Position numbers and translations under genes: made by a program | Notes under the pieces: generated by a model | What the model saw: the letters and a program-made list of their open reading frames with translations, nothing else | The model's database searches: none | Told to the model about the DNA's origin: nothing | IMG/VR virus record: IMGVR_UViG_2541047595_000008 | Location: 1-5,974 of that record | DNA from: a virus | Taxonomy: Duplodnaviria; Heunggongvirae; Uroviricota; Caudoviricetes | Direction: 5' to 3' (one strand) | DNA length: 5,974 nucleotides | Shown: piece by piece, positions 1 to 5,974 of the stretch | Position numbering within the stretch: the stretch's first letter is position 1 | Layout: each line of letters starts with the position of its first letter

Positions 1-411
1 GCAGCATTTTCTTCTGAAATGTATCCCAAACTGGCAAAGGTTTATCCAACGTTAAAATTACCTGATTTACGCGGTGAGTTTATCCGTGGTTGGGATGATG
101 GGCGAGGGATTGACTCTGGTCGCTCTATTTTAAGCGAGCAAGGATATGCAACGGAGGATCATGCTCACGGATTACCGTCAAAATCAACCGTAGCAACTGA
201 CCGCTCAATTAATTTCTACTTTGACGAGGCATGGGCTACTAGTGGTAATACGGGAGTTATCAGATGGGGGAACACAAGCGATGCAGGATTGCCAGCCCCT
301 AATTATGGAACTTTTAAAACATATAAACAGTCCGTAGCTAATTTAGGTACTGCTGGCTTAGAAACCCGCCCTCGTAATATTGCATTTAATTATATTGTGA
401 GGGCGGATTAA
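1..411 (+). CDS. Tail-fibre C-terminal variable domain Sv0 (5'-partial; gene continues upstream of window); probably the currently expressed variant
   Basis: Frame 1 is open from base 1 (AAFSSEMYPKLAKVYPTLKLPDLRGEFIRGWDDGRGIDSGR...) to TAA at 409..411. It carries the same conserved N-block and the same C-terminal tail (ETRPRNIAFNYIVRAD) as the minus-strand cassettes. The ORF-track start at 19 is an internal Met. Confidence 0.8.
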   Translation, partial: AAFSSEMYPKLAKVYPTLKLPDLRGEFIRGWDDGRGIDSGRSILSEQGYATEDHAHGLPSKSTVATDRSINFYFDEAWATSGNTGVIRWGNTSDAGLPAPNYGTFKTYKQSVANLGTAGLETRPRNIAFNYIVRAD

Positions 412-416
412 TTATA

Positions 417-1028
417 TCAACTGGCTGTAGAAAGTTGTTTTTCAGGCCAGTTGAGATCTGGTGCCGTGGTTAAATCCATCGCGTTCAGCTCGTCTATATA
501 ATCTAGCACGGAGTTAAGCTGCGTGGTTTCTGCCTGCGTCAACTTCCGTCCAGCCCGTAATTTCAACTGAATCAGACTAATGGAATCCATCGCAGTATCA
601 ATCAATGACTGACGTTTTGTTTCTGCTGCCTCTACAGCTGCACTATGTTGAGCCTCAGTATCAACCACCCATTTCTCTCCATCCCATTTGTCGTATGGTG
701 TTAGCGGGGCGATAGTGGTTGTATTTTCCGGATAGTCACCCAACACCGTGATTTCTTCGGGATTCCCAGTGTCAATGCTATAGACAGTTTCGCCACGATG
801 ATCTGGCACATACTCCCATGAACTTAAATCCTCTGAACGGAGAATCGCATAACCTGCTTTATGTGAGCCTGGAGCATCCAAACAAGAATTTGCCGGAATA
901 CCAACGCCAACAGCAAGATATTCAGTTGATGCAGAAATATATTCCCGATTACCACCATCATAGTTATAAACGATAATGTTTCCTGCCTGTATGGCTATAA
1001 GTTCGCTATTTAATATCGCATTATCCAT
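417..1028 (-). CDS. tfa: Tail-fibre assembly protein (Tfa / Mu-U-like chaperone), 203 aa
   Basis: The protein shows the Tfa pattern I recall from lambda Tfa and Mu/P1 U: GIPANS, DHRGETVY, PEN..T, KW.G..WV.DTEA and a C-terminal TAPDLNWP. Its ATG overlaps the stop of cassette A by 1 nt (TAATG on the minus strand). Confidence 0.85.
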   Translation of the reverse strand: MDNAILNSELIAIQAGNIIVYNYDGGNREYISASTEYLAVGVGIPANSCLDAPGSHKAGYAILRSEDLSSWEYVPDHRGETVYSIDTGNPEEITVLGDYPENTTTIAPLTPYDKWDGEKWVVDTEAQHSAAVEAAETKRQSLIDTAMDSISLIQLKLRAGRKLTQAETTQLNSVLDYIDELNAMDLTTAPDLNWPEKQLSTAS

Positions 1029-1486
1029 TATGCTGCTCTCACAATATAATTGAAGGCAATGTTACGTGGGCGGGTTTCATTCCCCCCAGATAACTCCGTT
1101 CTGTATTGACTGGTAAATTTACCATTAATCGCTCCTTCTTGGACGGCGTTATCTGTCGACAACAGACTATCCCCCCCTCTGTCATTTGGCACCAATACCG
1201 TGTTATCCCACGCGTCCCATGACCGAATATTATGATAATGACTTCCTGTTAACCACCCCTGTATGCTTAAGATGACCCTTCCCGCATCCACACCTCGCCC
1301 ATCATCCCAACCACGGATAAACTCACCGCGTAAATCCGGTAATTTATTGGTGGGATAAGCCTTTGCCAGATTTGGGTACTTTTCAGAAGAAAATGCTGCA
1401 CCATTGCATTTCAGCCACCCCGTTGGAGGTGTGGCTGAGGGCCACGGAACAGGTACACCAACGGGCAGCGCCGAGCCTTCTCCTAA
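1028..1486 (-). CDS. Silent tail-fibre C-terminal cassette A (no start codon; coupled to tfa)
   Basis: Manual translation shows the minus-strand frame open from site 1 down to TAA at 1028..1030: LGEGSALPVGVPVPWPSATPPTGWLKCNGAAFSSEKYPNLAKAYPTNKLPDLRGEFIRGWDDGRGVDAGRV...ETRPRNIAFNYIVRAA. The ORF track reports only 1028..1291 because the first usable start codon is an internal GTG. Confidence 0.75.
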   Translation of the reverse strand, partial: LGEGSALPVGVPVPWPSATPPTGWLKCNGAAFSSEKYPNLAKAYPTNKLPDLRGEFIRGWDDGRGVDAGRVILSIQGWLTGSHYHNIRSWDAWDNTVLVPNDRGGDSLLSTDNAVQEGAINGKFTSQYRTELSGGNETRPRNIAFNYIVRAA

Positions 1487-1503
1487 ACCAACGTTTCTAT
1501 GCC
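1478..1503 (-). repeat. Invertase crossover site 1 (hix/gix/cix-like, 26 bp)
   Basis: ttctcctaaacc-aa-cgtttctatgcc. Two imperfect inverted 12-bp half-sites flank a central AA dinucleotide. The aaacc-aa-cgttt core matches my recollection of hixL (AAACC-AA-GGTTT). It sits at the 5' boundary of cassette A. Confidence 0.7.
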
Positions 1504-1958
1504 GCTCTTACGATGTAATTAAATGCAATATTACGGGGGCGAGCTGATACATAAGCCCACCAGTCATATTTTTTGGCACCTTTACTGGATGCATCAAATA
1601 TCCACTTTTTGCCATTTATGGCCCCCCATTGATTAGAGGTTAAAGTGTCACCAAATCCGTATTGTGTTGAGCTGAGTGAACTGATATCCCCAGTATCATT
1701 ATCATCAAAACCGGAGACGATAGTGCCTTCCTGAAATGAAAGTATCTCTCGTCCTGCATCAATACCTCGTCCGTCATCCCAGCCACGGATAAATTCGCCC
1801 CGTAAATCCGGTAATTTATTGGTCGGATAAGCCTTTGCCAGCCTGGGGTACATTTCAGAAGAAAATGCTGCTCCGTTACATTTCAGCCAGCCCGTTGGTG
1901 GTGTGGCTGAGGGCCACGGAACGGGCACACCAACAGGCAGTGCAGAGCCTTCCCCCAA
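1497..1958 (-). CDS. Silent tail-fibre C-terminal cassette B
   Basis: 153-aa ORF. The apparent start is a TTG lying inside crossover site 2. It has the conserved N-block (GEGSALPVGVPVPWPSATPPTGWLKCNGAAFSSEMYP...KLPDLRGEFIRGWDDGRG), a unique middle and the invariant C-terminal RPRNIAFNYIVRAA. Confidence 0.75.
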   Translation of the reverse strand: MGEGSALPVGVPVPWPSATPPTGWLKCNGAAFSSEMYPRLAKAYPTNKLPDLRGEFIRGWDDGRGIDAGREILSFQEGTIVSGFDDNDTGDISSLSSTQYGFGDTLTSNQWGAINGKKWIFDASSKGAKKYDWWAYVSARPRNIAFNYIVRAA

Positions 1959-1975
1959 ACCAACGTTTTTATGTG
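1950..1975 (-). repeat. Invertase crossover site 2
   Basis: ttcccccaaacc-aa-cgtttttatgtg. The stop codon of cassette C (plus-strand tta at 1969..1971) is embedded in the outer half-site. Confidence 0.7.
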
Positions 1976-2472
1976 GCCCTTACAATGTAATTAAAAGCAA
2001 CGTTGCGGGGGCGCATTGATATCCATGCCCCGGTAAAATTATCCTCTGCCGTCCTTTGAGTGCCTGTTATGGAGTTATCTGATGATGCTGGAACATAATC
2101 GCTATTATCTCCTGCTTTAGGATTAGCAGGGTTTCCAACAGTTATAACAGAATCAGCAGTAGCATAAGCGATACCTACTTTGACATTAGTAGTCAGATCG
2201 ACACCGTAATAATCCTGCAAAGCTGTACGAATAAATGTTGCAGTCTGACCACTTAGCAATGAACGCCCTGTATCAATCCCTCTCGAATCATCCCAACCAC
2301 GGATAAACTCACCGCGTAAATCAGGTAATTTTAACGTTGGGTAAACCTTTGCCAGATTTGGGTACTTTTCAGAAGAAAATGCTGCTCCGTTACATTTCAG
2401 CCACCCCGTTGGTGGTGTGGCGGAGGGCCACGGAACAGGTACACCAACGGGCAGTGCCGAGCCTTCCCCTAA
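1969..2472 (-). CDS. Silent tail-fibre C-terminal cassette C
   Basis: Manual translation shows the frame open from site 3 to the stop at 1969: LGEGSALPVGVPVPWPSATPPTGWLKCNGAAFSSEKYPNLAKVYPTLKLPDLRGEFIRGWDDSRGIDTGRSLLSGQTATF...RPRNVAFNYIVRAT. The ORF track shows only 1969..2259 because no start codon lies upstream of the TTG at 2259. Confidence 0.75.
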   Translation of the reverse strand, partial: LGEGSALPVGVPVPWPSATPPTGWLKCNGAAFSSEKYPNLAKVYPTLKLPDLRGEFIRGWDDSRGIDTGRSLLSGQTATFIRTALQDYYGVDLTTNVKVGIAYATADSVITVGNPANPKAGDNSDYVPASSDNSITGTQRTAEDNFTGAWISMRPRNVAFNYIVRAT

Positions 2473-2489
2473 ACCAACGTTTTTATGCC
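2464..2489 (-). repeat. Invertase crossover site 3
   Basis: ttcccctaaacc-aa-cgtttttatgcc. Confidence 0.7.
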
Positions 2490-2986
2490 GCCCTTACGAT
2501 GTAATTAAATGCAACGTTGCGAGGGCGAGTTTCTGTACCTACATTTCCACTAATTTCACCATAACGTTTAACACTACGAGAGCTAATAGCTCGTAGTGAG
2601 GAAGGCACCTTATGACCGGGTTCGTCCGTTTTAACTATTCCCCCGTCACCGTATGTAGCTAGTATTCCTGGATTGACGCCTTCCCGTGCACTTCCTGCGG
2701 CGAGTCCGTCCCCTGTCCATAATTCCATATAGTGTGCATGGTCCAAAATTGTGTGTGGCTGCCAATTAAGCAAAGCGCGGCCAGCATCCACCCCGCGCCC
2801 ATCATCCCAACCGCGAATAAATTCTCCCCGTAAATCCGGTAATTTATTGGTGGGGTAGGCTTTTGCCAGTTTGGGATACATTTCAGAAGAAAATGCTGCA
2901 CCATTGCATTTCAGCCAGCCCGTTGGTGGTGTTTCTAAGGGCCACGGAACGGGCACGCCAACGGGCAGTGCAGAGCCTTCCCCCAA
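2483..2986 (-). CDS. Silent tail-fibre C-terminal cassette D
   Basis: 167-aa ORF with the conserved N-block (variant WPLETPP), a unique middle and the C-terminal ETRPRNVAFNYIVRAA. Its apparent TTG start lies in site 4. Confidence 0.75.
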   Translation of the reverse strand: MGEGSALPVGVPVPWPLETPPTGWLKCNGAAFSSEMYPKLAKAYPTNKLPDLRGEFIRGWDDGRGVDAGRALLNWQPHTILDHAHYMELWTGDGLAAGSAREGVNPGILATYGDGGIVKTDEPGHKVPSSLRAISSRSVKRYGEISGNVGTETRPRNVAFNYIVRAA

Positions 2987-3003
2987 ACCAACGTTTCTAT
3001 GCC
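2978..3003 (-). repeat. Invertase crossover site 4
   Basis: ttcccccaaacc-aa-cgtttctatgcc. Confidence 0.7.
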
Positions 3004-3428
3004 GCTCTTACGATGTAATTAAATGCAATATTACGAGGGCGAGATTCTCTCCCCCCCACCGAGTTAGTGCTATCCGATCTCTGTTGAATTACTGAGCCAG
3101 AAACATCAGCGGCTAAAAGATAATATCCACCTGTTGTATCAAATCCAGTTTGTGCCCATGTTCTTTCGAAATAATGACTATGTGATTTAAATTCATCTGT
3201 TTGAGTTGATAATAACGCGCGCCCACTATCCACTCCACGCCCATCATCCCAACCACGGATAAACTCACCGCGTAAATCCGGCAATTTATTGGTGGGGTAA
3301 GCCCTTGCCAGATTTGGGTACATTTCAGAAGAAAATGCTGCGCCGTTACATTTCAGCCACCCTGCTGGCGGTGTGGCTGAGGGCCACGGAACAGGCACAC
3401 CAACGGGCAGCGCAGAGCCTTCCCCCAA
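2997..3428 (-). CDS. Silent tail-fibre C-terminal cassette E
   Basis: 143-aa ORF with the conserved N-block (variant PPAGW), a unique middle and the C-terminal SRPRNIAFNYIVRAA. Confidence 0.75.
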   Translation of the reverse strand: MGEGSALPVGVPVPWPSATPPAGWLKCNGAAFSSEMYPNLARAYPTNKLPDLRGEFIRGWDDGRGVDSGRALLSTQTDEFKSHSHYFERTWAQTGFDTTGGYYLLAADVSGSVIQQRSDSTNSVGGRESRPRNIAFNYIVRAA

Positions 3429-3445
3429 ACCAACGTTTTTATGCC
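3420..3445 (-). repeat. Invertase crossover site 5
   Basis: ttcccccaaacc-aa-cgtttttatgcc. Confidence 0.7.
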
Positions 3446-3915
3446 GCCCTTACGATGTAATTAAATGCGATATTTCGTGGACGGGTTTCACTCCCGCCAG
3501 TATTACCAATACTCCCTCGAGAATGAAGTGTCGGTGATGGAATCAAATTCCCTCCTGTATTTGAGGCATCAAGCCCCCGTCCTTGTGTGTATGTTTTTTT
3601 GAAAATTGTCGCCAGCTCCCATTCATCTTTTGTGTCGTAACCATCATTGGCTACAACAATATGTCGGTGCTTTTCCAGCATTCCTGTCTGAATGCTCAAT
3701 AAAGCACGTCCCGCATCCACCCCGCGCCCATCATCCCAGCCGCGAATAAATTCTCCCCGTAAATCCGGTAATTTATTGGTGGGATAAGCCTTTGCCAGCC
3801 TGGGGTACATTTCAGAAGAAAATGCTGCTCCGTTGCATTTTAGCCAGCCTGTTGGCGGAGTGGCTGAGGGCCACGGAACAGGTACGCCAACAGGCAATGC
3901 AGAGCCTTCCCCCAA
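3439..3915 (-). CDS. Silent tail-fibre C-terminal cassette F
   Basis: 158-aa ORF with the conserved N-block, a unique middle and the C-terminal ETRPRNIAFNYIVRAA. Confidence 0.75.
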   Translation of the reverse strand: MGEGSALPVGVPVPWPSATPPTGWLKCNGAAFSSEMYPRLAKAYPTNKLPDLRGEFIRGWDDGRGVDAGRALLSIQTGMLEKHRHIVVANDGYDTKDEWELATIFKKTYTQGRGLDASNTGGNLIPSPTLHSRGSIGNTGGSETRPRNIAFNYIVRAA

Positions 3916-3932
3916 ACCAACGTTTTTATGCC
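3907..3932 (-). repeat. Invertase crossover site 6
   Basis: ttcccccaaacc-aa-cgtttttatgcc, identical to sites 5 and 7. Confidence 0.7.
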
Positions 3933-4393
3933 GCCCTTACGATATAATTAAACGCAATATTACGGGGGCGGGTTTCAGATGCTGTACGAACTGAGCGAGA
4001 GGCGTCGAATGTCCAGTTATAAGCGCCATAACCCTCAATAATTTCCGTTTCCTTTAGGCCTGTAGATAATACTTGACCATGTTGACTAAATGGCCCTGAA
4101 CTAAGTACATCTCTAAAAAGCTGAGTACGCCCGAAAGAACCAACAATATTCTGAATTGCATCATTCTGTGCAGATAATAAATTACGGCCAGAGTCAATCC
4201 CCCGCCCGTCATCCCAGCCGCGAATAAATTCGCCCCGTAGATCCGGCAATTTATTAGTGGGGTAAACCTTTGCCAGATTTGGGTACTTTTCAGAAGAAAA
4301 TGCTGCTCCGTTACATTTCAGCCACCCCGTTGGTGGTGTGGCGGAGGGCCATGGAACAGGTACACCAACGGGCAGTGCCGAGCCTTCCCCCAA
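3926..4393 (-). CDS. Silent tail-fibre C-terminal cassette G
   Basis: 155-aa ORF with the conserved N-block, a unique middle and the C-terminal ETRPRNIAFNYIVRAA. Confidence 0.75.
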   Translation of the reverse strand: MGEGSALPVGVPVPWPSATPPTGWLKCNGAAFSSEKYPNLAKVYPTNKLPDLRGEFIRGWDDGRGIDSGRNLLSAQNDAIQNIVGSFGRTQLFRDVLSSGPFSQHGQVLSTGLKETEIIEGYGAYNWTFDASRSVRTASETRPRNIAFNYIVRAA

Positions 4394-4410
4394 ACCAACG
4401 TTTTTATGCC
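4385..4410 (-). repeat. Invertase crossover site 7
   Basis: ttcccccaaacc-aa-cgtttttatgcc. Confidence 0.7.
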
Positions 4411-4832
4411 GCCCTTACGATGTAATTAAATGCGATATTTCGCGGCCTGACAGCAACAAAATTTATACCATCACCTACAGAGTTACTGGTGAAATTAAAT
4501 CGTGAAAATCCTGGCTGATTTCCGACGATGCCATCATGAAAATTAATTGCGTGCCCCGCACCATCGCCTATATTTCCGGCACGCTGAGAAAAGTTTGTAG
4601 CCTCTTGGCTGCTTAATAATGCTCGCCCATTGTCCACACCTCGTCCATCATCCCAACCTCGAATAAATTCGCCCCGTAGATCCGGCAATTTATTGGTGGG
4701 GTAAACCTTTGCCAGATTTGGGTACTTTTCAGAAGAAAATGCTGCTCCGTTACATTTCAGCCACCCCGTTGGTGGTGTGGCGGAGGGCCATGGAACAGGT
4801 ACACCAACGGGCAGCGCCGAGCCTTCCCCTAA
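4404..4832 (-). CDS. Silent tail-fibre C-terminal cassette H (outermost, next to the invertase)
   Basis: Manual translation from site 8 is open: LGEGSALPVGVPVPWPSATPPTGWLKCNGA... continuing in the same frame into ORF 4404..4688 (LPDLRGEFIRGWDDGRGVDNGR...VRPRNIAFNYIVRAA). The ORF track is shorter because the first start-capable codon is the TTG at 4686..4688. Confidence 0.7.
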   Translation of the reverse strand, partial: LGEGSALPVGVPVPWPSATPPTGWLKCNGAAFSSEKYPNLAKVYPTNKLPDLRGEFIRGWDDGRGVDNGRALLSSQEATNFSQRAGNIGDGAGHAINFHDGIVGNQPGFSRFNFTSNSVGDGINFVAVRPRNIAFNYIVRAA

Positions 4833-4849
4833 ACCAACGTTTTAGTCTT
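4824..4849 (-). repeat. Invertase crossover site 8 (array boundary site)
   Basis: ttcccctaaacc-aa-cgttttagtctt. The inner half-site and core match the other seven. The outer half-site diverges, with no preceding cassette and no embedded stop codon, as expected for the edge of the invertible region. Confidence 0.65.
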
Positions 4850-4886
4850 AATCCCTACCTATACCAACGATGTATTTTTAACTAAA

Positions 4887-4893
4887 CAAAGAG
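4887..4893 (+). promoter_or_regulatory. Ribosome-binding site of the invertase gene
   Basis: aaagagg lies 10 nt upstream of the ATG at 4904. Confidence 0.5.
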
Positions 4894-4903
4894 GTTGTTT
4901 TTC

Positions 4904-5476
4904 ATGCAAATTGGCTACATTCGTGTGTCAACAAATGACCAAAACACAGATTTACAAAGAAATGCACTGAACTGCGCAGGATGTGAACTGATTTTTGAAG
5001 ATAAAATAAGCGGAACAAAGTCAGCCAGACCAGGCTTGAAAAAGCTGCTCAGAACGTTATCAGAAGGAGATACGCTGGTTGTCTGGAAGCTGGATAGGCT
5101 TGGCAGAAGTATGAAACACCTTATCACGCTTATAGAGGAGTTGCGGGAAAAAGGTGTTAATTTCCGTAGTCTGACAGACAGTATTGACACATCAACACCC
5201 ATGGGGCGTTTCTTTTTTCATGTCATGGGTGCTTTAGCAGAAATGGAACGTGAATTAATTGTTGAGAGAACACTGGCCGGACTGGCAGCTGCACGCGAAC
5301 AGGGACGCATTGGCGGACGTCGCCCGAAGTTGACAAAAGAACAACATGAGCAAATAGCGAGGTTGATCGAAAATGGCTACAGCAGGAAACAGTTGGCAAT
5401 TATTTACGATATCGGTGTATCGACGATTTATCGTTATCATCCTGTAGAGAAGCGCCAAACTCAATCTGAGCTGTAA
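4904..5476 (+). CDS. Serine DNA invertase of the Gin/Cin/Hin/Pin/Min family (190 aa)
   Basis: MQIGYIRVSTNDQNTDLQRNAL...TLVVWKLDRLGRSMKHL...SLTDSIDTS.PMGRFFFHVMGALAEMERELI.ERT.AGLAAAR..GRIGGR is close to colinear with Gin and Cin as I recall them. The catalytic Ser is at position 9 and there is a C-terminal HTH (GVSTIYRY). The true start is the ATG at 4904; the ORF-track start is an upstream TTG at 4895. Stop is TAA at 5474..5476. Confidence 0.95.
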   Translation: MQIGYIRVSTNDQNTDLQRNALNCAGCELIFEDKISGTKSARPGLKKLLRTLSEGDTLVVWKLDRLGRSMKHLITLIEELREKGVNFRSLTDSIDTSTPMGRFFFHVMGALAEMERELIVERTLAGLAAAREQGRIGGRRPKLTKEQHEQIARLIENGYSRKQLAIIYDIGVSTIYRYHPVEKRQTQSEL

Positions 5477-5596
5477 TTCTAATGCCGCGTCGGTGTAATT
5501 TATCATGATAGAATAGGTACATTTATCGCGCGGCACATCAATTCGATGTATCTAGCGCCTGCTGACCGCTAATGAAAACTGTTCTCGAAATGTTGT

Positions 5597-5615
5597 CCCT
5601 AGTCCGAGACTAGGG
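5597..5615. other. Perfect 8-bp inverted repeat with a 3-nt loop (ccctagtc-cga-gactaggg)
   Basis: Seen directly in the sequence. No T-tract follows, so it is not a classical intrinsic terminator. It could be a protein-binding palindrome or an RNA hairpin. Confidence 0.25.
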
Positions 5616-5884
5616 TATCACCTCTGGAAAGCATACGCAGAACCTTTTTTAACCCAGGGTGCCCAGCCTTTTTGCTGCTCGCCTTATTCGCAAAAATTAG
5701 CTCACATCCTGCGCTTTCAAGTGCTTTTCACTGCATAGCTGTGTTTTGTTCATTTGTCTATATGCGTACATAGCCTATTAGCATATTTTTTGCCCACTAT
5801 CGTTATTTATTGCAAGCCACAGGTTTTAATTAACAAAACCAGTGTGTGTGGAAATCACAAAGTGCATACCGTTCTCAAATGTTG

Positions 5885-5974
5885 GGCTTTGTTGAATAAA
5901 TCGAACTTTTGCTGAGTTGAAGGATCAGATCACGCATCTTCCCGACAACGCAGACCGTTCCGTGGCAAAGCAAA
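5885..5974. mobile_element. Terminus of an IS903-group (IS5-family) insertion sequence; element continues beyond the window
   Basis: ggctttgttgaataaatc at 5885..5902 matches my recollection of the 18-bp IS903 terminal inverted repeat. The following ~70 bp (gaacttttgctgagttgaaggatcagatcacgcatcttcccgacaacgcagaccgttccgtggcaaagcaaa) matches the IS903 remnant I remember flanking the Tn903 kanamycin cassette in common vectors. This is from memory, not from a search. Confidence 0.6.

Follow-up and report, generated by a model that had tools for sequence, protein, structure and literature searches.

A probable nine-site Min switching array in the distal tail-fibre operon of a P1/p15B-like phage-plasmid

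The subject of this study is a 5,974-nucleotide stretch of viral DNA (IMG/VR record IMGVR_UViG_2541047595_000008, positions 1 to 5,974; hereafter "the window") in which alternative 3' ends of a tail-fibre gene are arrayed next to the gene for a serine DNA invertase. In all probability, the window covers the distal part of a tail-fibre operon, belongs to a P1/p15B-like phage-plasmid and carries a nine-site allele of the multiple-inversion system Min. The system itself is known, and the locus is an expanded allele of it rather than a system of a new kind.

The crossover sites were detected with a core search that recovered eight copies of TTCYCCNAAACCAACGTTTY, all on the plus strand, against 0.00 expected from 200 shuffles of the window. 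The same search found no match on the opposite strand of the window, so that the eight 26-bp sites of equal orientation claimed in the original prediction are borne out. Each has the form TTCCCCnAAACC-AA-CGTTTTTATGCC, in which two imperfect inverted 12-bp half-sites flank a 2-bp core, and the central dinucleotide is AA in all eight (TT on the coding strand). Length, inverted half-sites and a common 2-bp core are the marks of Din-family sites, and all eight window sites display them. They also agree with the consensus tabulated for the inversion systems of Mu, P1, e14, p15B and S. boydii (PMC4134206).

Cassettes were typed as clusters at 80% identity in the variable part, and sites were mapped in all fetched loci. 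From left to right, the window reads D> <tfa <E <J <C <G <K <A <H <F, followed by the invertase gene (arrowheads indicate direction; coordinates in Table 1). The nine cassettes belong to nine different types. In the eight minus-strand cassettes, the frame runs through the site as ...VGLGEGSALPVG..., begins with VGLGEGSALPVGVPVPWP... and stays open for 144-169 codons up to a shared ending, RPRN(I/V)AFNYIVRA(A/T), whose stop codon abuts the next site. Cassette D has the same build as the others and constitutes one head of a double-headed central unit, where it is convergent with tfa. Pairwise identity among cassettes is 86.5% over the first 215 nt and 81% over the last 60 nt, and falls to 55% in the middle; the conserved 5' part corresponds to the Pfam phage tail Collar domain. 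Across all cassettes, the C-terminal motif is RPRN(I/V)AFNYIVRA(A/D/T).

Translation revealed no frameshift in any of the eight minus-strand cassettes, and all nine frames are intact. The view that they encode different C-termini, each headed by a site, is thus upheld. The possibility that the cassettes are decayed duplicates, raised in the original prediction as grounds for its own dismissal, was discarded because their frames are intact and their middles divergent. The accompanying claim that cassettes have no start codon holds in part only. In three of the eight, a TTA at the site leaves no start codon there; in the other five, an in-frame TTG lies inside the site (GGT TTG GGG) and is taken as a start by open reading frame (ORF) finders and by the annotation pipeline PGAP.

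The invertase gene lies just beyond positions 1-4849, to which the original prediction was confined. Its product has the size of Din-family proteins (about 190 aa), a resolvase domain with the catalytic serine (Pfam Resolvase PF00239, 2e-51) and a C-terminal helix-turn-helix domain (HTH_7 PF02796, 3e-15). It aligns over its full length with the structure 4m6f of the Mu invertase Gin (E=4e-92), including the catalytic serine in RVSTNDQ, and also matches the Gin structure 3uj3; E is about 1e-92 for the two. The array is thus accompanied by a Din-family serine invertase close to Mu Gin, as anticipated. Its sequence is identical to UniRef Q05517_ECOLX and occurs on at least about 1000 contigs according to an exact-sequence look-up. 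Within the 5' part of the gene, 58 of the 72 positions of window 4922-4993 (81%) are identical, without gaps, to the annotated recombinational enhancer of P1, which the P1 record places inside the 5' end of cin. A slightly shifted comparison, window 4928-4998 against P1 31684-31754, yields 83.1% identity.

Evidence for shuffling comes from relatives that possess the same invertase. Two isolates of Escherichia coli strain 405 carry plasmids of equal length (96,237 bp) whose invertase is identical to that of the window. The arrangement is Sc / B A C D> <E F / invertase in one plasmid and Sc / D> <E B A C F / invertase in the other, where Sc stands for the constant 5' part of the fibre gene S. 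When the two arrays were cut in the middle of the core dinucleotide, they resolved into five segments, each 100% identical and three of them inverted, and the flanks to either side show no difference over more than 5 kb. Polymorphisms of the outer half-site (GGCATG, GGCATA or AGCATG) stay with the upstream unit, and those of the inner half-site (GGTTTA or GGTTTG, and GGGAGAA) stay with the downstream cassette. Because the polymorphic half-sites travel with their respective units, the exchanges are confined to some 13 nt around the core. This pattern is the prediction of conservative site-specific recombination, and argues against homologous recombination in the 215-bp repeats formed by the cassette 5' parts.

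Arrangements also differ between a Taiwanese isolate and its two derivatives. Furthermore, the nine units of the window are found in three further permutations in L116 (GCA_020295865.1), L118 (GCA_019193195.1) and L119 (GCA_019812035.1), with 0-9 mismatches per unit (98-100% identity). The right flank of the window is 100% identical in L116 and L119 up to the point where an insertion sequence (IS) has entered. As expected of a Din-family enzyme, the relatives with an identical invertase (the strain-405 pair; L116, L118 and L119) differ by conservative inversions only. Plasmids with this invertase hence carry the same cassettes rearranged exactly at site cores, which lends support to the inversion mechanism proposed at the outset.

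The window matches P1-like phage-plasmids of about 95 kb from E. coli, Klebsiella and Salmonella in DNA searches. Contigs that encode the identical Tfa or invertase have the gene order of the late region of P1: gp16 and R come first, then a long fibre gene S containing Phage_fiber_2 repeats, then cassettes, tfa and invertase, and beyond the latter the holin genes lydA/B, darA and ddrA/B. The left-most site of these relatives is embedded in the constant part of S as TTCTT(G/A)ATTACC-TT-GGTTTGGGGGAA, and the in-frame fusion across it reads ...SVL(D/N)YLGLGEGSALPVG...

The relatives also bear on what precedes cassette D. When located with a D-specific anchor, the site of cassette D in relatives always stops 78 nt short of the counterpart of window position 1, so that in the molecule of the window it is expected at about -103 to -78. 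This site coincides with the Sc site in L006, L024 and L119; it is internal, with more cassettes upstream, in L001, L023, L109, L116 and L118. In L119, which has the same nine cassettes as the window, D is fused to Sc through TTCTTGATTACC-TT-GGTTTGGGGGAA, a site whose orientation is opposite to that of the remaining eight. We regard a D-Sc fusion like that of L119 as likely in the isomer of the window, judging from the cassette inventory: each of the nine types that make up the matching nine-site arrays is already present in the window, and arrays that exceed nine sites were not seen. Cassette D is indeed a ninth variant on the plus strand, as the original prediction had it (under the name Sv0). 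Its fusion to a constant region, stated there as apparent, is likely but cannot be read from the window; other isomers have cassettes that precede D. The pairing of each of the eight sites with an inverted site before D gains support from the Sc-D site of L119.

The operon would work as follows. Sc would end in a 26-bp crossover site, and nine promoterless 3' cassettes, each opening with the inner half of a crossover site, would be distributed in two stacks facing the central unit (D> <tfa <E). The Min invertase, presumably aided by Fis bound to the enhancer inside its own gene, would recombine only sites in inverted orientation. Because the sites on either side of the central unit are mutually inverted, every inversion would swap the inner ends of both stacks and flip the central unit. 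Translation of whichever cassette adjoins Sc would supply the fibre tip. In the arrangement represented by the window, Sc would be joined to D, with the remaining eight cassettes forming one stack next to the invertase gene, such that a single inversion could place any of the eight behind Sc. Both the dependence on Fis and the consequences for host range are inferred.

This stack-swap rule was modelled by breadth-first enumeration of isomers, and the number of reachable states was found to be (n+1)·n!·2 for n single cassettes. For the Min system of p15B, 240 isomers have been published (PMC2481393). The model assigns the same number, 240 states, to an array of six sites, which agrees with the six sites of p15B, and 80,640 states to an array of nine. 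In the model, the strain-405 arrangements are at least 4 inversions apart, and L116, L118 and L119 are separated from the window by 7, 5 and 8 inversions, respectively. One inversion with the Sc site from the window state suffices to bring any of the eight minus-strand cassettes behind Sc.

Explanations other than a programmed switch were also considered. One is that the rearrangements result from RecA-dependent homologous recombination between the conserved cassette 5' parts (about 215 bp, 86% identical), the array being a set of repeats without programmed switching. Long similar repeats are indeed present in both orientations in relatives, and array sizes from 2 to 9 with the same invertase call for deletions and insertions that an enzyme limited to inversion does not make. 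However, the strain-405 segments are 100% identical when cut at the cores, half-site polymorphisms limit the crossovers to about 13 nt, and an intact, highly conserved invertase is present together with the enhancer homolog. We therefore consider RecA-dependent rearrangement very improbable as the origin of the isomers, even if homologous recombination may be behind the gain and loss of cassettes. Less probable still, indeed close to negligible, is the idea that the cassettes are independent small "phage tail protein" genes translated from the site TTG, so that several tip proteins would be made at once. ORF finders and PGAP do call genes of 142-167 aa at that codon. Against this, three of the eight cassettes have TTA instead, with no other upstream start; all of them consist of a Collar domain plus tip and lack the N-terminal shaft (Phage_fiber_2 repeats) for attachment to the baseplate; and related plasmids, without exception, have one cassette joined in frame to Sc through a site. 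A shufflon driven by a tyrosine recombinase was rejected as well: the recombinase belongs to the serine family, and the ORF list of the window contains no tyrosine recombinase gene.

A more serious objection, although an unlikely one, is that the window is a frozen relic whose sites and cassettes are intact but whose switch no longer turns, for instance because of the insertion of IS903B or the loss of a host factor. The end of an IS903B copy lies 408 bp downstream of the invertase gene, at a position unique among related records, and degenerate switches have been reported in other P1-like plasmids (PMC6906374). The IS is, however, located beyond the pseudo-invertase described below, and min, its upstream region, the enhancer and all sites are untouched. 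In addition, plasmids for which rearrangement is demonstrable have exactly the invertase sequence of the window, and the nine frames are intact. Turning back to the reading of the window as a nine-site Min allele, several points weigh against it. The switching of this particular molecule is deduced from its relatives, and Sc and the inverted partner site lie outside the window. Orientation raises a further difficulty: whenever D stands on the Sc side, as it does in the window, tfa runs antisense to the fibre operon. A scan for sigma-70 promoters and terminators provided no convincing tfa promoter, with 5 matches against 10.6 in shuffles; having scored below shuffles, the scan was not used further.

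The difficulty concerning tfa should be seen against the history of the central unit, which measures 1581 bp from core to core and contains the sole tfa of the array, co-oriented with cassette E and convergent with D. Its product is identical to Swiss-Prot TFAB_ECOLX, a sequence found on at least about 1000 contigs by exact-sequence look-up. In the chromosomal P2-like prophages L004 and L007 (9526-11132), E, tfa and D form a two-site invertible segment with an identical Tfa, located behind P2-type baseplate genes. As the same central unit acts there as a plain two-site switch, the asymmetry between tfa and D is old and evidently tolerated. The same observation suggests that the multi-cassette array grew by addition of single cassettes around an ancestral two-tip switch. 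All cassettes have the C-terminal RPRNIAFNYIVRAA motif in common, and this motif may be the common docking point for one Tfa.

Among the relatives, at least 12 cassette types were distinguished in the sample (A-K and N1). Type D was present in 17 of the first 22 sequences, and the central unit D> <tfa <E in all of the first 21 loci except L014, L016, L019 and L022, of which at least L014, L016 and L019 have truncated arrays. How many cassettes flank the central unit, and in which order, varies between loci; their orientation does not, being rightward on the Sc side and leftward on the side of the invertase in all cases. This pattern of plus followed by minus orientation was found in 33 of 33 complete arrays with an identical invertase. 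Their size ranges from 2 to 9 sites, with nine sites in six arrays and more than nine in none. Occasional deletion, duplication or import of cassettes must also occur, since inversion alone leaves cassette copy number unchanged; the 215-bp direct repeats could mediate such events, as could rare deletions made by the invertase. Type B is present twice in the array of L001. A survey of invertase relatives in IMG/VR returned mostly P2- and Mu-type prophages with 0-2 sites, and six at most, which has little bearing on P1-like plasmids.

Certain cassettes resemble genes of other phages. The variable part of cassette F (window 4411-4668) has 85% DNA identity to the side-tail-fibre genes of the lambdoid phages mEp213 and mEp043, and window 3234-3926 (cassettes K and A) is 87% identical to the side-tail-fibre gene of vB_EcoM-689R6, with 7% query coverage. 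Tip modules are thus common to unrelated types of phage.

Multiple inversion by Min is reportedly the work of Sandmeier, Iida and Arber, who described it in 1990-1992 in plasmid p15B of E. coli 15T-. p15B and the window have in common a P1-related plasmid background, a serine invertase adjacent to the array, 26-bp sites, alternative 3' cassettes (presumably behind one constant 5' fibre part in the window as well), a single tfa in the central segment with Tfa identical to TFAB_ECOLX, and a truncated second invertase gene beside min. The last feature fits psi-pin, the truncated 5' part of a second invertase gene that reportedly lies next to min in p15B. The presence in the window of eight sites, plus one expected upstream, which define overlapping segments in a P1-related tail-fibre gene agrees with what sets Min apart, namely more than two sites. 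The Min "shufflon" of p15B is a recognised system (PMC6109161).

Comparison with P1 strengthens the connection. The P1 record gives 89% identity (1 gap) between the stretch at the cin end and p15B nt 7147-7408, and 83% (0 gaps) between the enhancer stretch and p15B nt 6463-6533. For the same two stretches, the window has 89.1% and 83.1% identity to P1, at equal spacing. Besides, plasmid pMCR_SCKP-LL83 (MF510496.1) has an invertase identical to that of the window, and its 5-kb min-like segment has been noted in print and reported as 99% identical to min of p15B. On these indirect grounds of sequence (identity to Q05517_ECOLX and to the pMCR_SCKP-LL83 invertase, and P1 identity figures equal to those of p15B), the window invertase is identified as Min. 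The link to p15B follows from the same invertase identity and P1 figures together with the identical Tfa and the pseudo-invertase.

The differences are of size, not of kind: the window would have nine sites and cassettes in about 4.9 kb and 80,640 isomers, compared with the six sites, about 3.5 kb and 240 isomers of p15B. Moreover, cassettes J, K, A and H, among others, are drawn from a wider pool, of at least 12 types, which the plasmids share, and IS903B is found on the right. P1 (Cin/C) and Mu (Gin/G) share with the window the invertase family, an enhancer within the invertase gene (a putative one in the window), the 26-bp site with a 2-bp core, and a variable C-terminus of S, which inversion switches in P1 and Mu and presumably in the window. 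In contrast, they switch between two variants by means of two sites and provide each variant with a tfa of its own (U, U'), whereas the window array would have nine sites, nine variants and a single tfa. The window invertase also points away from the array, and a cin-like copy in the position and orientation of P1 is present as a pseudogene only. The shufflon of R64 (Rci) and the Rin system of a Bifidobacterium prophage resemble the proposed switch in their multiple overlapping inversions, 3' cassettes behind a constant 5' part and change of receptor specificity. They rely, however, on tyrosine recombinases and short asymmetric sites (sfx, rix) and have no Fis enhancer, while the window has a serine invertase.

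Nine-site arrays with the same architecture, but with other cassette order and orientation, are present in MF510496.1, CP142560.1 (pA338_p0), GCA_020295865.1, GCA_019193195.1 and GCA_019812035.1; an identical invertase is shown for pMCR_SCKP-LL83 and the three GCA contigs, the latter belonging to the six nine-site arrays counted above. pMCR_SCKP-LL83 (F G H B C A D / E I) lacks types J and K and contains B and I instead, and the IS903B insertion occurs in none of the five. The suggestion that the locus might be a larger or undescribed member of its class is therefore correct as to size (nine sites), but not as to novelty: Min of p15B is described, and nine-site arrays are already public, one of them in print. 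In the library of papers searched, none was found to deal with arrays larger than six sites, with the number of isomers they form or with tests of the tips they encode. We tentatively entertain, with less than even confidence, the idea that the nine-site array is a functionally distinct and uncharacterised expanded grade of Min, drawn from a circulating pool of at least 12 tip types, in which one Tfa would serve all tips through the C-terminal RPRNIAFNYIVRAA and tip D would fold without co-transcribed Tfa.

If this idea were true, the array would be the largest known host-range switch driven by a serine invertase, with 9 tips and about 8x10^4 isomers. Resistance genes such as mcr-1 and those for extended-spectrum beta-lactamases are spread among Enterobacteriaceae by P1-like phage-plasmids, in which the fibre tip determines the host range. 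A nine-tip element would have a wider potential reach than the two-tip P1 model, provided that its tips differ in the receptors they bind. What the array adds to the biology of site-specific recombination is size, not a new principle. Co-existing isomers probably break or duplicate assemblies, and recognition of such arrays improves annotation and the comparison of plasmids.

Table 1. Location of the features discussed in the text (window coordinates)
Feature	Position	Strand	Crossover site	Description
Cassette D (Sv0)	1..411	+		last 136 codons + stop of a 167-codon variable tail-fibre C-terminus
tfa	417..1028	-		tail-fibre assembly protein, 203 aa; Pfam Caudo_TAP E=3e-30
Cassette E	1028..1503	-	1478-1503	154 codons; second head of central unit; stop overlaps tfa start
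Cassette J	1497..1975	-	1950-1975	155 codons; Pfam Collar; 99.8% identical to L011 unit
Cassette C	1969..2489	-	2464-2489	169 codons; site without TTG; 100% identical to L011 unit
Cassette G	2483..3003	-	2978-3003	169 codons; 0 mismatches to L116, L118, L119 units
Cassette K	2997..3445	-	3420-3445	145 codons; Pfam Collar; rarest type
Cassette A	3439..3932	-	3907-3932	160 codons
Cassette H	3926..4410	-	4385-4410	157 codons
Cassette F	4404..4849	-	4824-4849	144 codons
Fixed right-end site	4824-4849		4824-4849	same site as listed for cassette F; outer half-site CGTTTTAGTCTT is part of the invertase flank
Serine DNA invertase (Min-type)	4904..5476	+		190 aa; catalytic Ser in MQIGYIRVSTNDQ
Homolog of P1 recombinational (Fis) enhancer	4922..4993	+		within the 5' part of the invertase gene
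Truncated pseudo-invertase	5608..5784	-		first 59 codons only; two in-frame stops
End of IS903B copy (IS5 family)	5884..5974	+		100% identical to annotated IS903B copies; outside the switch

The pseudo-invertase is arranged tail-to-tail with min. It has 63% identity to the window invertase (tblastn, E=3e-23) and is homologous to the 5' end of P1 cin, 5785-5873 being the homolog of the cin promoter region; together with the next 90 bp, it has 89% DNA identity to P1 31570-31836. By its sequence, it looks like a remnant of an original cin-type gene that was displaced by the min module. Relatives match the window only up to 5884, and the IS903B end lies between the pseudo-invertase and the holin genes. 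The IS903B junction was found in no record of PLSDB plasmids, complete E. coli genomes or IMG/VR.

Records of relatives show how arrays of this kind appear in databases. In RefSeq (for example, L023-L027), silent cassettes are annotated as "phage tail protein" genes from the site TTG, or as "incomplete" or "frameshifted" pseudogenes. Two assemblies of the plasmid lineage contain extra records of 2.5-2.6 kb made of cassettes only (NZ_JBQJRM010000005.1 and NZ_JBQJRS010000019.1), which probably arose in assembly from isomers present side by side, an artefact that has been reported for EC958.

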